Numbered from the stretch's first letter, positions 26,352 to 38,530 are shown. The stretch: 64,000 nucleotides of DNA from an uncultured Methanomassiliicoccales archaeon (GCA_963695345.1 OY968769.1:2446441-2510440), one strand, 5' to 3'. Notes: a model not told the origin generated them from the letters alone. Numbers and translations are program-made.

Positions 26352-27195
26352 TCAGTACCGTTCACACTTGCAGCCTCCGTTCGTTTCCCAAAGCATGGAA
26401 CTCAACCTCTCTTCCGGGAGCATGGTGCGCTGGCGTTTGATGAGCTCGTCGAAGTTGGTCTCGTGCCCGTCGAACTCGGGGCCATCCACGCAACCGAACA
26501 TCATCTTGTCGCCCACGGTCACACGGCAGACACCGCACATGCCCATGCCATCGATCATGATCGGGGTCAAGGTCACAATGGTCGGGATGCCGTAGGGGCT
26601 GGGTCATCTCGCTCACCTCTTTCATCATCACCACCGGTCCCATGACCACGCACCGGTCGAATCTCTCCGTCTGGAGGAGATCGTTCAGGAAAGCCAATCC
26701 CATTTTCCCCGCAGTCCCATCGTCCGAGGCGATGTGGACCTGATCGCTGTTTGCCATGGCCTCCTCCTTCATGAAAAGCAGATCGCTGCTCCTGCAGCCA
26801 AGGACCGTAGTCACATGGTTTCCTGCCGCCTTCAAGGCCTTGGCCTGAAGCAGCAACGGGGCGATCATTATGCTTCCGCCCACGCACAGCACCTTCCCGA
26901 AAGTTCCTGATCTCGGAAGGATTGCCCAACGGTCCGGTGACGTTGAACAGGCAGTCGCCCTGGTTGAACGTGCCCAGCTCCTTGGTGGTCTTGCCGACCT
27001 CATGGAAGGCGAATGAAACCGTTCCTTTCTCCGCGTCGTAATCACAGATGGTAAGGGGTACTCTCTCCCCTCCCGTTTTCGCTATGACGATCAGGAATTG
27101 CCCCGGCTGAGCTTTGGCGGCGATCTCCGGGGCCTCGACCTCGAACAGGGTCATCTTGTAGCTGAGCGCCTTTTGGACAATATCTTGTATGTCAT
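26352..27195 (-). CDS. nfnA: sulfide-dehydrogenase beta / NfnA-like FAD-[2Fe-2S] subunit (frameshifts, one in an AAAA homopolymer at about 27170)
   Basis: MTYKILSK then (frameshift) ALSYKMTLFEVEAPEIAAKAQPGQFLIVI...GKVLCVGGSIMIAPLL...GMGMCGVCRV...DGPEFDGHE. SD-like GGGAGG precedes the ATGATG start. Confidence 0.8.
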
Positions 27196-28410
27196 CATTC
27201 CGCCTCCCTTTGTAGCGGTATCTTTGGCATACGGCATGGTTGCGATCCTCTCGAAGAAAGCCTCGAACTTCTGGCTGAATTCGCCCTCACATCTCGGCGA
27301 GAGCTCGTGTATCTCGAACCGATCGAGCAATCCTGCTTCTTCAGAAAGGCTGTGAGGACCTCGAGCTGCCTTTCTGAGGTGTCTCTTCCCTGCTGGAGCT
27401 TGCAGTCCTTCGCCGAGCAGACTACCGCCATGACGCCGTCGAAGCCCTGCTCGAAGGCGCTAACCACCTGCACCGGGTCCATTCCCTTGAAGCAAGGTAC
27501 CTCCATGACAAGAGCGTTCTTCCCTTGGAGCATCTTCTCCGGATCGTCCAGAGCTGAGTACTCCGACCACTGGCAGCTGAGGATCAAGATGGCAGGTCTG
27601 CCGTCTCTGGCCCTTATCCTCTGTGCCGCGGCTCCATAGGATGCGATGAGATCTTTGAACTCATATCCTTTGACGTGGATGGCGTTGTGCGGACAGACCA
27701 GCTGACAGGCACCACAGCCCATGCATTTCTCGGCATCCGTGGAAGGCGTGGAGAACGGTTCTGACTTGATGGCTCCGTAGGGGCATACGAACACGCATTT
27801 GCCGCAACCGACGCACTCACTGTTGTTCCTGACCACCTTTCGAGAATACTTCACGACCTTCAGCGCATCATCGGGATAGCCGAGCTGCTTGATGACCGCC
27901 TCGCCAAGTAGCATGCGCCTTGTCCCGATCCCGGTGCCTTCCTTCATACGGCAGAATCCGTCATGGCACTGGATAGAGATGATGTTCTTCACGCCCGACT
28001 TCAGGGCATTGAAAATGAAATCCGTCGGGATCCTTCCGGCGCATGGGATGCGCAAGGGCAGATAACCCTCCACCTTCAGGCCCCTGTCCGGCAAGGATGT
28101 CCTCGACCTCGCCGCTGCTGGGCGAGTTGCCCCTGCACATCATAACCAGCGTATCCGCGCATAGGTTCTTTCGTGCCGATATGACGTAATCGAGCAGGTC
28201 CCCATAATCGTAGTATGACATCTCGATGGCCGAGACGGGACAGGCACTATAGCATATCCCGCAGACCTGACACTTTTGGATGTCTATGCTCAGTTTACCG
28301 CCATCGGGCTGACGGTCAATGGCCTCGAACGGACAAAGCGAGAAGCAAACCGTGCATCGGCTACAGAGGTCTTGGTCAATTCTAACGGCTGCAAGGCAGT
28401 TATCGTTCAT
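27195..28410 (-). CDS. mvhD: polyferredoxin with two MvhD/FlpD-like domains (hydrogenase iron-sulfur subunit family; frameshift near 28080)
   Basis: Four CxxCxxCxxxCP ferredoxin motifs (CSRCTVCFSLCP, CQVCGICYSACP, CVGCGKCVFVCP, CMGCGACQLVCP). These are interleaved with two MvhD-like Cys-containing modules (LRIPCAGRIP...IQCHDGFC and ILSCQWSEY...EVPCFKG...VVCSAKDC). A TGATGA double stop overlaps the nfnA start. Confidence 0.7.
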
Positions 28411-28829: not shown

Positions 28830-30169
<1,340 letters not shown>

Positions 30170-30262: not shown

Positions 30263-30518
30263 ACAATTTGAACTATGGGGAGATCCCTTTGATCTCGCTG
30301 GCCTTCCGTCGATCGGCAGATGATCCGATAGGGCCTCACCGCCAAACCTCATTCGTGTCTTGACGTTCTGCCTAATGGATCCATCCCCAAACTGGCCAGG
30401 TCCATCTTATATGGAATGTGCCCGTCAGCAACCATTGGGATACGATGCCTGCACAAATATCAGGACGACATTTTAATAGTCTAGCTAATACTATACACCT
30501 AGCCGAGGAGGGTTCACC

Positions 30519-31052
30519 ATGCCAGACATCAGGCAGAAGGTTGAGGAAGACCGGGGGCTGATCAAGAAGATCCAGCTGATGGTCCCAGGATATCGCGGAT
30601 ACAGGCTCAGGGACGACCTTAGGGACTCGGACAAGATCCTGAGGGTCGAGCTCGGGAAGCGACTGGCGCTTCAGCGCAAGGAACTGGAGGAGTTCCGGCA
30701 GACGATGGTCACGAACAATCCCATGTCGAAGAACCTTCAGCCGATCGGCGGCATCATCAACCAGTACAAGAAGGTCGAGGGCCTGATGGCCCATGGCGAA
30801 TCGGGATACTCGGGCATCTCGGCGGACATCCGCATCGGCGTACCGGAGCTGAACAGCTCTACGAGTACGATGCCGGAATGGTCGAGAGCATCAATTTCAT
30901 CGAGCAATCCATCGGATTGCTGCGGAGCGGCCGTGGACGACAAGGACGATTTCAAGGTCGCCGAGCATCTCAAGAACGTCAAGATGCGCATCACCGGTTT
31001 CGAGGAGAAGTTCGCCAAGCGCATCTCCACCATCCAGGGAATAGGAGTGTGA
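30519..31052 (+). CDS. hypothetical charged, helix-rich cytosolic protein (first gene of the SPFH/ZnR/LemA/TPM cluster)
   Basis: 177-aa ORF rich in predicted helices (LIKKIQLM...RVELGKRLALQRKELEEFRQTM; KMRITGFEEKFAKRI). A stretch around 30850-30930 reads more protein-like in the +1 frame (QLYEYDAGMVESINFIEQSIGLLRS), suggesting a compensating frameshift pair. Confidence 0.45.
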   Translation: MPDIRQKVEEDRGLIKKIQLMVPGYRGYRLRDDLRDSDKILRVELGKRLALQRKELEEFRQTMVTNNPMSKNLQPIGGIINQYKKVEGLMAHGESGYSGISADIRIGVPELNSSTSTMPEWSRASISSSNPSDCCGAAVDDKDDFKVAEHLKNVKMRITGFEEKFAKRISTIQGIGV

Positions 31053-31058
31053 TTCTGA

Positions 31059-32182
31059 ATGAGCTTAATCGGCGCGGACACCTTCAAGTGGGAGGACCAG
31101 GACAAGCGTCTCAACATCATGTTCCGCATGAACCGGAACATCAAGTATGGCGACAACGTCGTGGTCCGGGAGGACGAGATCGCCGCGTTCTACCGGGACG
31201 GAAAGGTCCTGACCTACATGGACCGGCCGGACCGGTACGCGCTCACCGACCTGAACGCCCCCATCGTGGGCAAGCTGGTCAAGGCCTTGTCCGGTGCGCA
31301 GCAGCAGGCCGAGGTCATCTACCTGCAGAAACGCGCCTTCGACGGCAAGTTCGGCTCCAAGCAGCCGTTCCAGTTCCGGGACAAGGAGTTCGGGATGGTC
31401 AACCTCCGGGTGTTCGGCGAGTTCCGTTACAAGGTCTCGAACCCGGAGAACTTCGTGAACCAGTTCGTCGGTACGCTCAACTTCGCCACCAGCGCCGAGA
31501 TCGAGGAGCGCATCAAGGAGCAGATGGTGCTCCTGATCTACTCCGCCATCGGCGACATGAAGAACCAGGGCATGGGAGTGGCGGATCTGGCCAGCAGCCT
31601 GACGAACATCGAGCAGGTGGTCCTGTCCAAGACCAACGACCATTTCGACCTCTACGGCGTCGGCATCGACAAGATATCTGGACTGTACATCTCCCTGCCG
31701 GATGAGGTGCAGAAGGCGGTGGACACCCGGGCATCCATGCAGATAACCGGCACCAACTATGCCCAGTACCAGAGCGGACAGGCCATGCGGGAGGCGGCCT
31801 CGAACCCCGCGGGAGGGGCGGCCGCGGCCGGTGTCGGCGTCGGCGCCGGTATCGGCATGGGCTACACCATGGTCGATTCGATGAGGAGCGCACAGCAGCA
31901 GCCCGCACCGGGAGCGGCAGCCGCCGGCACCGCAGCAGGTCCTGCTCTGCCCCAAGTGCGGGGCAACGAACAACGTCGGTGCGAAGTTCTGCAACTCATG
32001 CGGAACGAAGCTCACGGTCGAGACGGTCCCCTGCCCCAAGTGCGGCAGCAATGTGAACATCGATGCCAAGTTCTGCCCCGAGTGCGGCAACGCGATGAAG
32101 GCAACCAAGAAGTGCCCCAAGTGCGGCACCGAATCCGCCGCGAACGGCAAAGTTCTGCCCCGAGTGCGGAACCACCTTCTGA
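31059..32182 (+). CDS. SPFH/Band-7 family protein (YdjI-like) with Gly/Ala-rich linker and three C-terminal zinc ribbons (2 frameshifts)
   Basis: FRDKEFGMVNLRVFGEFRYKVSNPENF and ISLPDEVQKAVDTRASMQITGTNYAQYQSGQAMREAA match the YdjI-type SPFH family. Then (GA)n, then three CPKCG...AKFC(N/P)xCG ribbons ending TTF*. Confidence 0.75.
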
Positions 32183-32192
32183 GGGCGTACTG

Positions 32193-32942
32193 ATGGCCAC
32201 CATCAAATGCCCCAAGTGCGCGGCACCGGTGGAGTTCGACGCCAAGGACAAGTTCGTCCAGTGCACCTACTGCGGTTCGTTGATCTATATCGACCGGAGC
32301 GGGGCCGGGTTCTACTACGCGGTCCCGTTCATGATCGACCAGAACAACGCCATCGGCACGTTCCGGCGATGGGCCAGCGGACCCACCAAGGCCAAGGACC
32401 TGGACAAGTCGGCGCAGGTGGTGGGAGCGAAGAAGGAGTATTTCCCGGTGTATCTGTTCAAGCGTGACGTCGACGGCGTCGAGCAGGTGCTGGTGGAACC
32501 GGCCGGATCGACGACGCTGCCCGGGCTGCACAGCCTCAAGGTCCCGGCAGGCGACATGAAGGTGTTCGACAGCACCTTCGACACTGGAGGGGCCGAGATG
32601 ATCAAGCCGGACATCGAGATGACCTCCTACCTGGGCACACTGCCCGGGAAGCCGAAGGAGCAGGCCCTGGTCTACTTCCCCATATGGACGATAGACTATG
32701 TCTTCGAGCAGAAACGGTACAGCGTGGTGGTCAGTGCCACCTCCGGCGAGGTGTTCGCCGCCGAGTTCCCCACCCGGAGCTCCGCCTCGTACCTGCTGGT
32801 GGCCATCGTCGGTTTCGTGGCCTTCTTGGCCGAGGGATTCCTGGCCTCTAGGACCGGCATGTTCGGATTGGCCGTGATCATGATGCTGGTGACAGTTCTG
32901 GCGGTGTTCGGGATCGCTTATTACGTGGCAAAGAGGATGTGA
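32193..32942 (+). CDS. zinc-ribbon protein with beta-rich middle domain and 2 C-terminal TM helices (paralog 1)
   Basis: MATIKCPKCAAPVEF...CTYCGSLIY, then EYFPVYLF...VYFPIWTIDYVF, then two TM helices (LLVAIVGFVAFLAEGFLA; LAVIMMLVTVLAVFGIAYYV). Intact ORF. Confidence 0.65.
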   Translation: MATIKCPKCAAPVEFDAKDKFVQCTYCGSLIYIDRSGAGFYYAVPFMIDQNNAIGTFRRWASGPTKAKDLDKSAQVVGAKKEYFPVYLFKRDVDGVEQVLVEPAGSTTLPGLHSLKVPAGDMKVFDSTFDTGGAEMIKPDIEMTSYLGTLPGKPKEQALVYFPIWTIDYVFEQKRYSVVVSATSGEVFAAEFPTRSSASYLLVAIVGFVAFLAEGFLASRTGMFGLAVIMMLVTVLAVFGIAYYVAKRM

Positions 32943-32944
32943 AC

Positions 32945-33959
32945 ATGGGCATCGAGGTAGGTCTAAACTGTCCCGCGTGCGGCGGTGCCATCAAGGTCGT
33001 CGAAGGTGAGAACACCGTCAACTGCCAGTATTGCGGTTCGATGCTCTTCGTCGAAGGGGACGCGGGCGTCACCACGGTCTCCTTCAAGAACATGATCACC
33101 CGGGAGGCCGCGGTGACGGCCTCGGCCGACTGGTGGAGGAAGGGATTCAAGGCCCGGGACCTGAAGAAGGATCGGACAGGTGACCGAATGCTATCCCATC
33201 TACATCCCGTTCTGGAGCACCACGACACGGGTCGCCGGATGGATATGCGGATACGAGGAAAGGACCCACAGCGACGGCAAGCGCACCTACACCGAACGGA
33301 TCCCGAAGGAGGAGATGGTGCTGCGCGATTACCGATTCTCGGAGATAGCCTGCGACCCGGGGGACCTGGGCATCAGGAAGCTGAGGAACATGGACGGGGA
33401 AACGACCCTGACCGATTTCCAGATGATCCCGACCTTCGAGTCGACCACCAGCAGGGACGATGCGACCGACGCATGCCAAGGAGAGCGCGATGGCGAACGC
33501 CCGGTCCGATGCCCACGTGCCTCACATCACGTTCGAGAACGTGCATGTCTTCCCGAAGTCGATGTCCATGATCTACTATCCGGTCTGGGTGGTCCGCTAC
33601 ACCTACCGCGACAGGATGTACCTGAACACGGTGGACGGCGTCACCGGAACGGTCCTTTCCGGGAAGGGCTCCCGGGCGATCCGCTGTTCCAGAGCCTGGC
33701 GGTGACCGCCGGGACGTCCATCGGGGGCTTGCTGGCGGCAGCCGGAGTCATCGTCGCCAGCTCTTCGGCGGAGGTGGCGGTCGGATGCTTCATCGTGGGG
33801 TTGATCATCATGATCGGGACCTATCTGTTCTTCCGGCACGGTTCGGAGATAACCGAGGGGGAATTCTCCGACCGGGGGTTCAGGCTCGGCGACCTCAAGG
33901 GCGTGGCCTCGCAGCTTTCGCAGGGACGCGTCGGCGGCAACAACTGGGGTGATATCTGA
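32945..33959 (+). CDS. zinc-ribbon protein with beta-rich middle domain and 2 C-terminal TM helices (paralog 2; 3 frameshifts)
   Basis: NCPACGGAIK...CQYCGSMLF, then YPIYIPFWST...IYYPVWVVRYTY, then TM helices (LAVTAGTSIGGLLAAAGVIV; VAVGCFIVGLIIMIGTYLFF). Pieces lie in three frames. Confidence 0.55.
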
Positions 33960-34547
33960 TGCAGGTGATACAGGTCAAATGCCCCAAGTGCGGGAACCCG
34001 ATCTATTCGAAACAGAAGGACACCGTGTTCTATCTGCATCAACTGCAACACGATGCACATCCGGAACGGCGGGATCCAGGTCTTGGACGTCGAGATCGGG
34101 GACTTCAACAAGAGCGCCTCCCAGGACCGGGTGTACGTCCCGTTCTGGCGCATGTACTCCACGGTCGTGGTCAACAACTCGCGTTCCGAGGGAGGAGGAT
34201 TCCATAAGCTGGCAAGTGGTTCAGCGGGGACAGCAATTCCGGAAATATCTTCATCTGGGTCCCGGCATCGGAAATGGACATCGACCGGTTCAAGGGCATG
34301 GCCATGGACTTCACGCTCAACCCGCCGCCGTACAGCACCAGGATGGATTTCGGCCTGGTGCCGAGGCTGCCCACGGTCATGAAGCGAGGCGGAGGCGATG
34401 GAGATGGCCGATTTCGTGGTGGTGACGATCGAGGCGGAGAAGCCGGGCGTCCTGCAATCCCTGGACTATTCCCTCACCGTGCACGATGCCAAGCTGATCT
34501 ATCTGCCGTTCGTGAGCACGGAGCGCGGACTGATACCGGCGTTCTGA
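33959..34547 (+). CDS. zinc-ribbon protein with beta-rich domain, no TM (paralog 3; frameshifts)
   Basis: MQVIQVKCPKCGNPIY...CINCNTMH, then VYVPFWRMY...KLIYLPFVSTERGLIPAF*. The start overlaps the previous stop (TGATG). Confidence 0.5.
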
Positions 34548-34633
34548 TCGCCCCACAAACCCCACCGACTTCCTTTCCATCGTGGATGAATTAGCAGATA
34601 AGTTTGATAACGGCAGACTGTCTACTCCTGGCC

Positions 34634-35224
34634 ATGGCAGAGGGGTCTGGCATCAACAAAAGGACCATTTACAAGATCGTCGCGGTCGGACGTGATCGTC
34701 ATAATCCTGCTGTGGACGGTCCTGGCGTACAATGGAATCGTGGGCAAGGACCAGAACGTCAACTCGAAGCTGTCGGAGATAAAGAACCGATACACCGTGA
34801 AGCTCAATGTGCTGCCGGCGATGCTCTCGACCCTGAACAACTACACGATCTACGAGTCCGGTCTGCTCACGAACATCACTGCGCTGAGGAGCCAATGGAT
34901 GGCGGAATCAAGCAGCAGGGGCCTCCGCGACCAACCTCTCGAACACCAGCGAACAGCTGGACACGACAGCTCAGCCAGATAGTTCTGACCTGGGAGAACT
35001 ACCCGATCTCAAGGCGGACTCCCTTGTTCAGCCAGTACATGGGTGAGATAGTCAACCAGGAGGAACAGCTGTCATATTCCAGGACGAACTACAATACGGC
35101 GGTGCGGGACTACAACACGGCCATCAAGTCCTTCCCCAACAACCTGCTGGCCGGATCGTTCGGTTTCGGCGACAAGATCGTATTGGGGCACAGGGATCGA
35201 CGACGGAACGGCGCTCAACCTGTG
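34634..35224 (+). CDS. lemA: LemA family protein (3 frameshifts)
   Basis: N-terminal TM, then YNGIVGKDQNVNSKLSEIKNRYTVKLNVLPAMLSTL...WENYPISRRTPLFSQYMGEIVNQEEQLSYSRTNYNTAVRDYNTAIKSFPNNLLAGSFGFGDK, which tracks the LemA consensus closely. Confidence 0.8.
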
Positions 35225-35281
35225 ACGGGTCGGGATGAACCGCTCCACGAAGATCGCCGCCATCGTCGTGTATCGTGGTAA

Positions 35282-35990
35282 TGGCGATTATCTTCTCGAT
35301 AGGGGCGTACATCATCCTTCAGCCTTCGAACAATGATGATACCAGTTGGGTCCCCGAGCTCGACTTCCTACGTCACGGATGATACCTACGTTCTCTCGGA
35401 CACGGACTACTACGACCTTCTTGACTTCTGTGCCGCGGTCGAGCACGAACAATACCTGCCAGATAGCGGTTTTGATCGTCAACGGCACGAACTACAATGG
35501 CGTCCACGTCGGGGTCAATGACCTGGCCGTCAAGGTCTTCGAAAAGAACGGGATCGGCCAGAAGGGCAAGGACAATGGCGTTCTCTTCGTCCTGTCGACA
35601 GCCGACGAGAGCTGGCGGGTGGTCACCGGAAAGGGCGTGGAAGGTATCCTCAGCGGCGCCAAACTGACGGAACTCCAGAACGCCTACCTTGTACCATACC
35701 TCGACACTCCGGGCAATTATTCCACTGGTATCACGCTGTTCGTCTACTCGATCGGACTGGAGCTGACCGATCACTATATCAATACCGGTCCGGCACCCAG
35801 CCCCTACCCGATCGACTTCATCCCCCTGAACGGCTTCGAGCTGGCGATCGCCATTGCCGTTTTCATCGTACTGATGATAATCACCCGGGGAAGGGCCATA
35901 CTTTGGATCGGTCTGCTTTTCGGTAGGGGCGGAGGCGGCGGCTTCGGCGGCGGCAGTACCGGAGGCGGCGGGTCCAAGGGACGTTTCTAG
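35282..35990 (+). CDS. TPM-domain protein (YgcG/YdjH/UPF0603-like) with TM and Gly-rich tail (2 frameshifts)
   Basis: N-terminal anchor MAIIFSIGAYIIL. TPM core QIAVLIVNGT...GVLFVLSTADESWRVVTGKGVEGILSGAKLTELQNAYLVPYL. Then TM helix and GGGGGFGGGSTGGGGSKGRF*. Confidence 0.75.
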
Positions 35991-36238
35991 GAAATTAGAA
36001 AACGGAGTTGAGAGAGCTTCGGCTAATTTGTTTTCGGATTCCATCGATTTCATTCCTTTTTTCCGGCGAACGAACGGAGCTGATTATCAGCGTCCAGGCA
36101 ATCAATATTCCGAAATGGTTTTAAATGGGATGCTCACTTGATGCCCATTCTGTATCGATGGAGATGGTCGTACTATGAAATCCTGGCAGTTACGGCTCGG
36201 TTTGTTATTGGTGTTCCTTTCCGTACTCACATACGTGC

Positions 36239-37023
36239 ATGCATTACCTGCTCTTCAATGACCTGCACCATATCCTGATCTATTTCGTCGGGGATATCGC
36301 ATTTGTATTCATCGAAGTGCTCCTGGTAACATTGATAATTCATTCTCTCTTGGATAGAAGGGAGAAGGCGAATATTATCGGCAAGATGAGCACGGTGATC
36401 GGGGCGTTCTTCAGCGAACTTGGCAGGCCCTTGATCGTCCTACTCATGAAGCATGGAGTGCGCGAGGAGGCACTGGGTGTCGACCTACGGTTTAACAACA
36501 ATTGGACCGATAGCGATTATAGAAATGGCGGTCAAAGCATTGTCAGAAAAAGGAAGTATCACTCAAGCTTGATGCGACCGACATGGCGGAGATCAAGAAG
36601 CTGCTGACCGAGAAACGGGATTTCCTATTGGGCATGATGGAGAACCCGAACCTGCTGGAGCATGAGAAGTTCACGGAAATGCTGCTGGCCCTGTTCCACG
36701 TCCAAGAGGAGCTCATGTTCCGGGGCGACTCGAACGCTCTGCCGAAATCGGACATTGCCCATCTGAACAAGGACGTCAACCGTGCTTTTGGATTGATCAT
36801 CCGGGAATGGATAATGCACATGAGACACCTTCAGAACAACTATTCCTACTTGTTCTCGTTGGCCACAAGGACGAACCCCTTCGACCCTCGAGGCGGAGGC
36901 AATAGTGAAGGAATGAGGGTAATCACTTCATGGAGTAGAATGGAAAGACGGATCGCCCTCCAATCGAATGTTACGATTCAGATGAAGCTCAGGCGAAGGT
37001 TAATGAGAGCATTCGCGCCTTAG
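36239..37023 (+). CDS. hypothetical membrane-anchored protein (probably one gene split by a frameshift near 36570)
   Basis: N-terminal TM (ILIYFVGDIAFVFIEVLLVTLIIHSLL). The second ORF (MAEIKKLLTEKRDFLLGMMENPNLLEHEKFTEMLLALFHVQEEL...) continues in another frame. No recognisable family. Confidence 0.3.
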
Positions 37024-37042: not shown

Positions 37043-37855
37043 ATGGGAAGGCTCTCAAGAGGATGGCAGCTCACCAAGTTGAGTTTCAACGTAATCAGAA
37101 AGGACAAGGAGATCTTGCTGTTTCCGATCATCTCAGGAATAGCGCTCATCCTGATGGCGGCATCGTTCTTCGGAACATACTACTTCGCTTTCGGATTCGA
37201 CAATATCAACACCTACCTGCTGGCGGCATTCTTCATCGCCTTTTACTTCGTGTCTGCCTTCATTGTCGTCTTTTTCAACGTAGCTCTAGTCTCATGCGCG
37301 ATGCTCCGCCTGAACGGCGGGGATCCCACCTTCTCGTACGGGATCAAGATGGCGACCTCACGCCTGAAGTATATCCTGGAATGGGCACTTCTTTCGGCAA
37401 CGGTCGGACTGGTGCTGCAGGCGATCAGCTCCAGATCAGGGGTCATCGGAAAGGTCATCATCGGGATGATCGGCTTCGCCTGGTCGGTGGCTACTTACTT
37501 CGTCGTGCCGATCATCGCGTTCGAGCAGATGGGGCCGTTCAAGGCGATCAAGCGCAGCGCCTCCATCCTGAAAGGCTCGTGGGGAGAGGCGTTGATATCG
37601 AACCTCGGCATAGGACTAATCTTCTTCTTGCTGGCGCTGGTAGGGCTGATTCCCCTGATCATCGGGTTCGTCATCGGGGTTTCGTTCGCCATCATCGCCG
37701 GTATCGTCATTGCGGTGGTCTACTGGCTTTGCCTGGCGGTTCTGGCATCGGCGGCCAGCGGGGTATTGTTGACCGCTCTCTACCGTTACGGGACCACCGG
37801 GAAGCTGTCGGAGTACTATTCCGAGCAGGTCCTGCAGAATCCCTGGAGACAGTAG
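37043..37855 (+). CDS. multi-pass membrane protein (DUF4013/GDPD-membrane-domain-like)
   Basis: Intact 270 aa with 6 or more TM helices. No catalytic motifs. Confidence 0.5.
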   Translation: MGRLSRGWQLTKLSFNVIRKDKEILLFPIISGIALILMAASFFGTYYFAFGFDNINTYLLAAFFIAFYFVSAFIVVFFNVALVSCAMLRLNGGDPTFSYGIKMATSRLKYILEWALLSATVGLVLQAISSRSGVIGKVIIGMIGFAWSVATYFVVPIIAFEQMGPFKAIKRSASILKGSWGEALISNLGIGLIFFLLALVGLIPLIIGFVIGVSFAIIAGIVIAVVYWLCLAVLASAASGVLLTALYRYGTTGKLSEYYSEQVLQNPWRQ

Positions 37856-37954: not shown

Positions 37955-38530
37955 TTGCGTCCTATGACCTCGAACACGTGCCTGTCCTGCGGCAGGGAAA
38001 TGGCCAAGGACATGATGTTCTGTCCCTACTGTGGTTCCAAGATACAGGCGGAAGGCTCTCTGGCCGATGCCGGCGAACAGGAGCGGATTGAAGGGGTTAT
38101 CCCTTTGGCCAAATGGAGGGGGGAAACGGACCAAGGAACATTGTCGACTCTCGTCATCACGTCGACCAGTGTCATTATCGCCAAGGTCAAGGAGACAGAT
38201 TCGGACAAGATAAGAAAGGCCACCGGTTCGCTGTTCATGGGAGGGGCGAATCTGGACCCAGAGCGCCACAGAAAGAGCCTGGGTGCCTATTCCAGTCGAT
38301 ACCTGACGATGGATCCGGGAACGATTCTGGCTGAATCGTCAAGCAACGAATCGATCAGAATAACCGATGTGAAGGCGGTCCGGATTTCTTCCGAGGACGA
38401 TTCCGAAGGCGATCAGTATTACATACTGGCAATTGAAACGGATCGAGGGATAAGGACGGTCCAGATCCCGGCAGACAGGGATTCCAGGGATCTGATCATT
38501 TCGACCTTCGGCCCTAAGGTACATTGGTGA
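37955..38530 (+). CDS. zinc-ribbon + PH/GRAM-like beta-domain protein (hypothetical)
   Basis: CLSCGREMAKDMMFCPYCGS at the N-terminus, followed by an about 150-aa mostly beta domain. Intact ORF. Confidence 0.5.
   Translation: MRPMTSNTCLSCGREMAKDMMFCPYCGSKIQAEGSLADAGEQERIEGVIPLAKWRGETDQGTLSTLVITSTSVIIAKVKETDSDKIRKATGSLFMGGANLDPERHRKSLGAYSSRYLTMDPGTILAESSSNESIRITDVKAVRISSEDDSEGDQYYILAIETDRGIRTVQIPADRDSRDLIISTFGPKVHW

Follow-up and report, generated by a model that had tools for sequence, protein, structure and literature searches.

A probable PspA-independent relative of the Bacillus YdjGHI/SamGHI membrane module in a Methanomassiliicoccales archaeon

In a 64-kb stretch of DNA from an uncultured Methanomassiliicoccales archaeon (the window), a tight, co-directional cluster of seven genes, G1 to G7, occupies positions 30519-35990 on the plus strand. 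The locus is probably a PspA-independent relative of the YdjGHI/SamGHI membrane module of Bacillus subtilis, centred on the SPFH protein G2, for which we infer physical interactions, a membrane topology and a role in stress. New here are the G1 family, with its near-constant position before the Band_7_1 gene, and a PspA-free module that is conserved across Thermoplasmata.

Gene content and assembly state

The preliminary description of this DNA had the co-directional, tight packing right, but its count of nine genes reduces to seven, as seen in an intact relative (L001) with products of 177, 376, 247, 334, 195, 182 and 249 aa. Relative to such intact loci, about 20 single-base indels are spread over the cluster. 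Since the glutamate dehydrogenase gene upstream is split by the same kind of frameshift, and since a public protein from a 2.56-Mb contig matches an uncorrected ORF of the window, we regard these indels as assembly errors and not as marks of pseudogenes. The features, including the putative signals on either side as read from the sequence, are as follows.

30471..30478, plus strand: TATA-like box, putatively archaeal, TTTTAATA, about 40 nt before G1 begins
30505-30512: putative ribosome-binding-like site, GAGGAGGG
30519..31052, plus strand: G1, all-helical, 177 aa, from a family without annotation; two 1-nt indels that compensate each other, near 30856 and 30929
31059..32182, plus strand: G2, soluble SPFH protein; frameshifts near 31920 and 32146; stop codon confirmed; intact ortholog 376 aa
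32193..32942, plus strand: G3, 249 aa, intact in the window; N-terminal ribbon, alpha+beta domain, C-terminal two-helix membrane hairpin
32945..33959, plus strand: G4, about 340 aa, paralog of G3; frameshifts near 33171, 33466 and 33659-33671; intact ortholog 334 aa
33959..34547, plus strand: G5, about 190 aa, soluble paralog; frameshifts near 34034, 34211 and 34390; intact ortholog 195 aa
34634..35225, plus strand: G6, LemA-family membrane protein, first gene of a LemA-TPM cassette, 86 nt after G5; several frameshifts
35235..35990, plus strand: G7, TPM-domain membrane protein; several frameshifts
36057..36062, plus strand: TTTTTT run beyond the end of G7, possibly an archaeal terminator

Within the module the spacers range from -1 to 10 nt (6 nt between G1 and G2), which is consistent with co-translation. 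Two TGATG stop/start overlaps had been reported; the one between G4 and G5 at 33957 holds, whereas the one at 32191 does not, the corrected frame of G2 stopping at 32182 and G3 starting at 32193. G3 and G4 overlap (GTGA) solely if the start of G4 is a GTG at 32939.

A conserved five-gene module

The conserved unit is formed by the first five genes, G1-G5. At 58 of 61 Thermoplasmata species loci, G3, G4 and G5 follow the G1-Band_7_1 pair in this order, so that synteny in relatives holds for this part of the cluster, and two distant archaea (L003, L173) likewise have ribbon proteins of the G3/G4 type beside the dyad.

At the centre of the module, G2 matches Pfam Band_7_1 (PF13421) over profile positions 6-210 of 211, with 119.3 bits against a cutoff of 24 (E 2.3e-34), and the same domain is assigned to its orthologs. 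It is followed by an Ala/Gly-rich, hydrophobic low-complexity segment and three C-terminal four-cysteine (CxxC...CxxC) ribbons, with Pfam DZR matching in three ribbon stretches (81 bits, E 7e-23); an N-terminal hydrophobic segment is absent from the G2 sequence. By its predicted features G2 is of the YdjI/SamI type: anchorless, with a low-complexity segment and C-terminal zinc fingers. The three ribbons on the SPFH protein, previously described as an extra fusion, are indeed present, but as a distinction they were overstated, given that Band_7_1 proteins of this type commonly carry ribbons; B. subtilis SamI has one at its C terminus (bioRxiv 10.64898/2026.02.06.704340).

The proposed triplication of the zinc-ribbon component was confirmed by hhalign, which relates G3 to G4 (99.2%, E 9e-20, 192 columns) and G4 to G5 (97.1%, E 7e-11, 137 columns); BLASTP also aligns G4 with G3 over the full length (E 1e-12). 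In G3, a CxxC...CxxC ribbon at aa 5-26, similar to RpoP-type ribbons, precedes the alpha+beta domain, and the AF2 model (pLDDT 73) places helices at 197-220 and 223-247. G4 combines a ribbon with an alpha+beta domain larger than that of G3, a hydrophobic C-terminal region and a tail, while G5 consists of a ribbon and a G4-like domain, without a membrane segment. Thus, G3 has the N-terminal zinc ribbon and C-terminal anchor of a YdjG/SamG-like architecture and G4 has it likewise by paralogy, with G5 lacking the anchor. G3 has 493 homologs, and none among the 120 matches listed carries a Pfam domain. For the central domain of the ribbon proteins, where YdjG/SamG-like proteins have an NTF2-like/YpeB-related domain, the best Foldseek match is weak (E 0.15), with YpeB only at rank 3.

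G1, the near-constant neighbour of the SPFH gene

The first gene of the cluster had been treated as encoding an incidental helix-rich protein, perhaps a cryptic PspA, but it proves to be linked to the SPFH gene more tightly than any other partner, in archaea and bacteria alike. A Band_7_1 gene lies immediately downstream of G1 at 74 of 74 archaeal species-level loci and at 56 of 57 bacterial-type metagenome loci, and the dyad also occurs in Eremiobacterota, Bacillota, Bathyarchaeota and a 7.6-Mb genome. This adjacency is near-universal across two domains of life. In bacterial loci, G1 is preceded by a membrane protein whose ribbon is of the G3/G4 type.

The family comprises 1,533 clusters at 50% identity. 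Its 205 retrieved homologs are all 170-190 aa long and none has a Pfam domain; the stitched G1 protein aligns with them along its full length and itself has zero Pfam matches. Two loop motifs are conserved, PG[YF]xGY (aa 23-28) and GYSG (aa 96-99). The AF2 model (pLDDT 86, pTM 0.81) shows five helices in a compact bundle, an N-terminal helix being followed by long ones. A weak full-length match to NCBIfam NF047596, the LIMLP_15305 family (E 2e-8, 34 bits against a cutoff of 210), indicates at the sequence level that G1 is related to this family but is not a member.

Some G1 proteins carry a fused DUF4178, which is already known from PspA-linked operons (PMC11237479). Such fusion proteins have PspA, Band_7_1 and an amine oxidase as operon neighbours, and three bacterial operons run G1 fusion, PspA_IM30, Band_7_1. 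These operons and the DUF4178 fusion tie G1 to the PspA/Band-7 network.

LemA and TPM as a detachable cassette

Following the module, G6 and G7 form a typical LemA-TPM pair. G6 matches Pfam LemA (PF04011) with 108.4 bits (cutoff 26.2, E 3.6e-31), and a search with its intact ortholog finds the solved structure of a LemA protein, 2etd (E 3e-22); MamQ is another protein of this family. G7 matches Pfam TPM_phosphatase (PF04536) with 82.4 bits (cutoff 22.1, E 3.5e-23), has PDB relatives in 2kw7, 7tbr, 5anp and 3ptj, and is YdjH-like in layout, with an N-terminal anchor ahead of the TPM domain, then another membrane helix and a tail rich in Gly, the hydrophobic segments being read from the sequence. 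After stitching, the SPFH, LemA and TPM assignments thus all lie above the Pfam gathering scores.

The view of all seven genes as one conserved unit did not survive the comparison of loci. LemA-TPM adjoins the module at 8 of 53 eligible species loci, lies 7 kb away at 5 and is absent within 10 kb at 40, and in two close relatives (L007, L008) the gene found after TPM in the window comes straight after G5. The "YdjH-like" TPM component is therefore optional. This distribution would suit a chance juxtaposition of unrelated units, in which LemA-TPM forms a dyad independent of the G1-G5 module and is driven by a promoter of its own; the dyad would then be uninformative on SPFH function, and the gap in front of LemA contains a TA-rich stretch that could be read in the same sense. 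Such independence appears unlikely to us, however. DUF2207 is a frequent neighbour of LemA, and it recurs just upstream of the bacterial G1-Band_7_1 dyad at 9 of 24 eligible loci. Moreover, the homologous SPFH protein of Bacillus has TPM among its core partners (PMC11237479). That such linkage recurs independently suggests a functional connection, though a facultative one.

PspA and the identity of G1

The absence of a canonical PspA, suspected from the beginning, is borne out at the level of the locus: a small PspA HMM finds none in the 64-kb window, and none within 10 kb of the module when run on 84 archaeal 20-kb loci. A PspA or ESCRT-III protein encoded elsewhere in the genome could still be recruited.

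Could G1 itself be a cryptic member of this superfamily? It would then be an extremely diverged effector of the PspA/ESCRT-III type, which the SPFH protein brings to sites of membrane damage to polymerise there and to seal or reshape the bilayer, and the locus would be a complete Psp-like system with a replaced effector. G1 is all-helical, sits beside a YdjI-type gene in an operon position like that of pspA in Bacillus, and is thereby genomically linked to the SPFH partner of PspA, with no PspA encoded near the module. However, neither PspA_IM30 nor Snf7 of Pfam matches any of the seven cluster proteins, a profile search with G1 against PDB sequences does not find PspA, Vipp1 or ESCRT-III even at E<=10, and hhalign gives G1 and PspA a probability of 0.8%. 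The predicted compact bundle also differs from the ESCRT-III fold, an extended alpha1-alpha2 hairpin with following helices, and has no specific fold similarity to it. Finally, G1-domain proteins stand beside bona fide PspA in the same operon, which argues for a distinct role of G1. Taken together with this co-occurrence, the Pfam, profile and hhalign results rule out that G1 is PspA, and they make even a highly diverged effector of this type distinctly improbable.

It is scarcely credible that these genes are pseudogenes in decay or an island of anti-phage defence: while the frameshifts are dense (about 20 within 5.5 kb) and some conflict systems include SPFH and zinc-ribbon proteins, the gene for glutamate dehydrogenase, a housekeeping enzyme, is frameshifted too, orthologs of the module genes are intact and full length in dozens of species, the flanks are housekeeping genes without mobile elements, and PADLOC defence models give a single marginal ribbon match (G5, E 6e-4) and nothing for the other six proteins.

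A possible mode of action

SPFH proteins and the membrane-repair machinery of PspA and ESCRT-III are intensively studied, whereas the YdjI/SamI branch of the SPFH proteins is, to our knowledge, known from one Bacillus operon. In our reading of the locus as a PspA-independent relative of that system, G3 and G4 would be anchored by their C-terminal helical hairpins and face the cytoplasm and, together with the soluble paralog G5, could serve as a platform on which G2 docks and is kept at the membrane's inner face. There G2 may self-assemble, as SPFH proteins do, and G1, as a compact helical bundle, would bind it as a dedicated partner and act as a regulator or effector of its assembly. The LemA-TPM pair, appended in the lineage of the window, might contribute a component on the other membrane face. 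The role of the module is likely membrane organisation or the sensing of membrane stress.

A tentative and rather doubtful extension is that the G1 family represents a new SPFH-coupled class: in PspA-less archaea and many bacteria these proteins would be devoted to anchorless Band_7_1 scaffolds and supply their output, a job that falls to PspA/ESCRT-III in the Bacillus system. If so, the YdjI/SamI system would be ancestrally, and also most widely, a G1-SPFH dyad, and PspA a lineage-specific addition. The PspA-free module and the position of G1 together offer the SPFH and PspA field a concrete candidate partner to test, and annotators a large, unannotated family to name. For archaeal biology, the module is a candidate system for membrane maintenance, in a group for which responses to envelope stress are, as far as we know, essentially undescribed.

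Relation to known systems

The closest known system is the pspA-ydjGHI (pspA-samGHI) operon of B. subtilis. Both encode, in one co-directional operon, a soluble SPFH protein of the Band_7_1 type that has a low-complexity segment and a C-terminal zinc finger (YdjI/SamI and G2), and a protein with a zinc ribbon, an alpha+beta domain and a C-terminal anchor (YdjG/SamG and G3/G4), the latter likened by the architecture described for YdjG, with its N-terminal ribbon, alpha+beta domain and C-terminal membrane anchor (PMC11237479); a membrane TPM protein (YdjH/SamH and G7) is present in the window. The resemblance first proposed thus stands for families and architectures, but not for TPM as a fixed component. 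In the archaeal operon and its vicinity PspA is missing, the ribbon protein is triplicated with one copy soluble, three ribbons sit on the SPFH protein, TPM occurs facultatively and together with LemA, and the gene order is not the same; G1, the always-present first gene, does not figure in the four-gene list given for the Bacillus operon. In B. subtilis, SamI, itself soluble, is brought to the membrane by SamG and SamH, and its main, developmental phenotype is reported not to require PspA (PMC8581546; bioRxiv 10.64898/2026.02.06.704340).

LemA-TPM and LemA-DUF2207 membrane dyads are a second point of reference, G6-G7 being attached to the module just facultatively and DUF2207 recurring at the bacterial dyads. 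A third is provided by SPFH-NfeD operon pairs, in which stomatin/flotillin-type Band_7 proteins go with NfeD/YqiJ/YuaF. There too, an SPFH gene is invariably accompanied by one small dedicated partner gene in bacteria and archaea; here, however, the SPFH protein is of the anchorless Band_7_1 type, and G1 is a soluble helical bundle in place of a membrane protein with an OB-fold. We claim no sequence relationship.

The G1-DUF4178 fusions beside PspA, Band_7_1 and amine oxidase recall the polyamine-linked PspA/Band-7/DUF4178 operons (PMC11237479), although the archaeal module is devoid of DUF4178, DUF350 and polyamine genes. Band_7_1 genes without a G1 neighbour also exist, as on a Ralstonia megaplasmid with the similarly polyamine-linked order DUF350-SPFH-DUF4178-SpeD.

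Gene Content and Reading Frames

Translation of positions 30400-36100 of the window in the three forward frames reveals a coding sequence that switches frame every few hundred bases. Stitching these frames together yields seven genes, two fewer than the nine counted in the preliminary description:

30519-31052, + strand: G1, 177 aa, helical protein without a Pfam family
31059-32182, + strand: G2, 375 aa, SPFH protein with zinc ribbons
32193-32942, + strand: G3, 249 aa, zinc-ribbon protein, the sole intact gene of the cluster
32945-33959, + strand: G4, about 340 aa, zinc-ribbon paralog of G3
33959-34547, + strand: G5, about 190 aa, soluble zinc-ribbon paralog
34634-35225, + strand: G6, LemA protein
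35235-35990, + strand: G7, TPM protein

From G1 through G7, the intergenic spacers measure 6, 10, 2, -1, 86 and 9 nt; of the two TGATG stop/start overlaps described earlier, the one between G4 and G5 is genuine, and there is no other.

Do these broken frames reflect gene decay? Alignment with two intact relatives, 83% identical to the window at the nucleotide level, reveals about 20 single-base indels across the cluster, most of which are insertions on the window's side. The same fragmentation, over three reading frames, affects the glutamate dehydrogenase gene just 5' of the cluster (28830-30169), whose ELFV_dehydrog_N and ELFV_dehydrog matches lie in different frames; the uncorrected reading of G1 recurs exactly in a public protein encoded on a 2.56-Mb contig; and the cluster orthologs are intact in dozens of species. 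Together, these observations mark the indels as errors in the deposited assembly, not decay. Across the whole window there seems to be roughly one indel per 250-300 bases, a density as expected for an unpolished long-read assembly.

Family Assignments and the Zinc-Ribbon Proteins

The proposed SPFH, LemA and TPM assignments hold, as G2 (Band_7_1, 119 bits), G6 (LemA, 108 bits) and G7 (TPM_phosphatase, 82 bits) all score far above the Pfam cutoffs. Furthermore, the solved LemA structure 2etd is matched by a LemA ortholog, and four solved TPM proteins by a TPM ortholog. The three ribbons ascribed to the SPFH protein are indeed present in G2, C-terminal to an Ala/Gly-rich segment. No Pfam family was found for G1, G3, G4 or G5, with G3-G5 giving nothing beyond generic ribbon matches, and PADLOC models produced no meaningful match to the cluster proteins.

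The triplication of the zinc-ribbon component is borne out by the relationships among these three proteins: G3 and G4 are related along their entire length (BLASTP E 1e-12; hhalign 99.2%, 192 columns), while G5, which has no membrane segment, is paralogous to G4 over the ribbon and central domain (hhalign 97.1%, 137 columns). The predicted model of G3 (pLDDT 73) can be divided into four elements: a ribbon, a pair of helices, long beta hairpins and, at the C-terminus, a two-helix hairpin. As no hydrophobic stretch precedes the terminal hairpin, the ribbon and the central domain should both lie on the cytoplasmic side. By description, this architecture matches that of B. subtilis YdjG in PMC11237479. 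Fold searches for the central domain gave no clear relative, the best Foldseek hit standing at E 0.15.

The Helical Protein G1

Judged by its sequence, G1 is not PspA. No cluster protein has a Pfam match to PspA_IM30 or Snf7, no PspA, Vipp1 or ESCRT-III chain among PDB entries was matched by the G1 profile up to E 10, and hhalign returned a probability of 0.8% when G1 was compared with an alignment of E. coli PspA plus three PspAs encoded in operons. The remote homology to PspA, ESCRT-III or Vipp1 that had been considered for this protein thus finds no support in these comparisons.

G1 belongs to a family of 1,533 clusters at 50% identity (E<=1e-3), with 4,116 matches to its profile among 90% clusters; no precomputed Pfam domain is attached to any of the family matches that these searches listed. 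Its named members are found in Chloroflexota, Eremiobacterota, Bacillota, Anaerolineae and Bathyarchaeota. G1 of the window aligns weakly, but in full, with the Leptospira NCBIfam family NF047596 (LIMLP_15305); the one citing paper found for LIMLP_15305 lists the gene as a small-RNA neighbour, without a word on function. Two conserved glycine/aromatic motifs, PG[YF]xGY and GYSG, occupy the loops that follow helices 1 and 3. Chloroflexota members (loci L085 and L088; proteins P0324 and P0372) carry low-complexity C-terminal tails of ~250 residues in which Gly, Pro, Gln, Ser and Thr abound and which look disordered; DUF4178, to which they are unrelated, was rejected as an identity for these extensions.

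Conservation of the Cluster in Archaea

In a scan with one genome per species, a G1 relative is encoded in 258 genomes, the best 80 of which all belong to Methanomassiliicoccales or other Thermoplasmata. Among archaeal loci long enough to judge, Band_7_1 lies immediately 3' of G1 in 74/74, and G3, G4 and G5 follow with order and spacing kept in 58/61. LemA-TPM adjoins G5 in 8/53 loci, sits ~7 kb off beyond unrelated genes in 5/53, and is not present within 10 kb in 40/53. Two close relatives, L007 and L008, have G5 joined directly to a homolog of the window gene that comes next after TPM. The conserved unit therefore is G1-G5, and LemA-TPM is a detachable cassette; of the single partner cluster originally proposed, the five-gene part stands, while the LemA-TPM pair is usually not adjoining.

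Three genes 3' of the cluster were rejected as module members, their synteny being limited to close relatives:

36239-37023: unannotated protein, frameshift-split
37043-37855: DUF6159 multi-pass membrane protein
37955-38530: zinc-ribbon protein

On a complete Methanomassiliicoccaceae chromosome (L058, 14046-15748), a 197-aa ORF and another SPFH protein, this time of the classical Band_7 (PF01145) type, come after the five-gene module.

G1 and Band_7_1 in Bacteria

Among 80 metagenome loci retrieved with a narrowed bacterial-type G1 alignment, the Band_7_1 gene begins immediately after G1 in 56 of the 57 eligible ones, and five further genomic contexts show the same dyad with spacers of 3-15 nt. 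The linkage is near-universal, not absolute. Recurrent neighbours are DUF2207, on the 5' side, and a small membrane protein with a C-terminal ribbon of the G3/G4 type (KCPxCG...KCPYCGS). Just 5' of G1 in L124-L134, L156, L158 and L169, and often after DUF2207, this bacterial protein has 172-220 aa and N-terminal membrane helices; two members tested gave no above-threshold Pfam match. In a Bathyarchaeota genome and a distant Thermoplasmata locus, the dyad has soluble G3/G4-like proteins on its flanks.

Three bacterial operons have the order G1-domain protein, PspA_IM30, Band_7_1, the G1 domain being fused to DUF4178 or a disordered tail. One such operon (L087, 1269-5872) carries genes for a G1-DUF4178 fusion, PspA_IM30, a Band_7_1 protein with a double zinc ribbon and an amine oxidase; it connects the G1 family with the polyamine-associated PspA operons of PMC11237479. 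Ralstonia megaplasmids carry DUF350-SPFH-DUF4178-SpeD without G1; as no G1 homolog was found in the R. solanacearum operon (L171, 4497-8089), where Band_7_1 is part of DUF350-SPFH-DUF4178-hypothetical-SpeD, a second, G1-free setting exists for this SPFH family.

A Possible Membrane Platform

What could such a module do? Gene order, fusions and architecture make a SamGHI-like platform without PspA the best-supported reading of the locus. In Bacillus, according to PMC8581546 and bioRxiv 10.64898/2026.02.06.704340, SamI (YdjI) is recruited by SamG (YdjG) and SamH (YdjH), and its phenotype does not require PspA, which makes a PspA-free version plausible. The ribbon proteins, with their C-terminal hairpins as anchors, would face the cytoplasm and retain at the membrane the SPFH protein, which has no anchor of its own; G1 would be the stoichiometric partner of this SPFH protein, and LemA-TPM a facultative addition.

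Two large comparative Psp studies describe the Bacillus operon and the Band-7, TPM, ZnR and DUF4178 links; the parts consulted mention neither Thermoplasmata, nor this archaeal module, nor a helical family before the SPFH gene, in keeping with the initial impression that this exact architecture had not been described. It is a genuine possibility that G1 marks something of wider scope.

Other Features of the Window

A tRNA scan of the window came back empty. On the - strand at 27195-28410, two overlapping ORFs, probably a frameshifted gene as well, encode an FlpD/MvhD-like domain and 4Fe-4S ferredoxin domains, which fits the methanogen-type energy metabolism of Methanomassiliicoccales. From about position 36000, 3' of the cluster, the G+C content falls to about 0.52, having been about 0.59-0.62, and stays lower to the end of the window.
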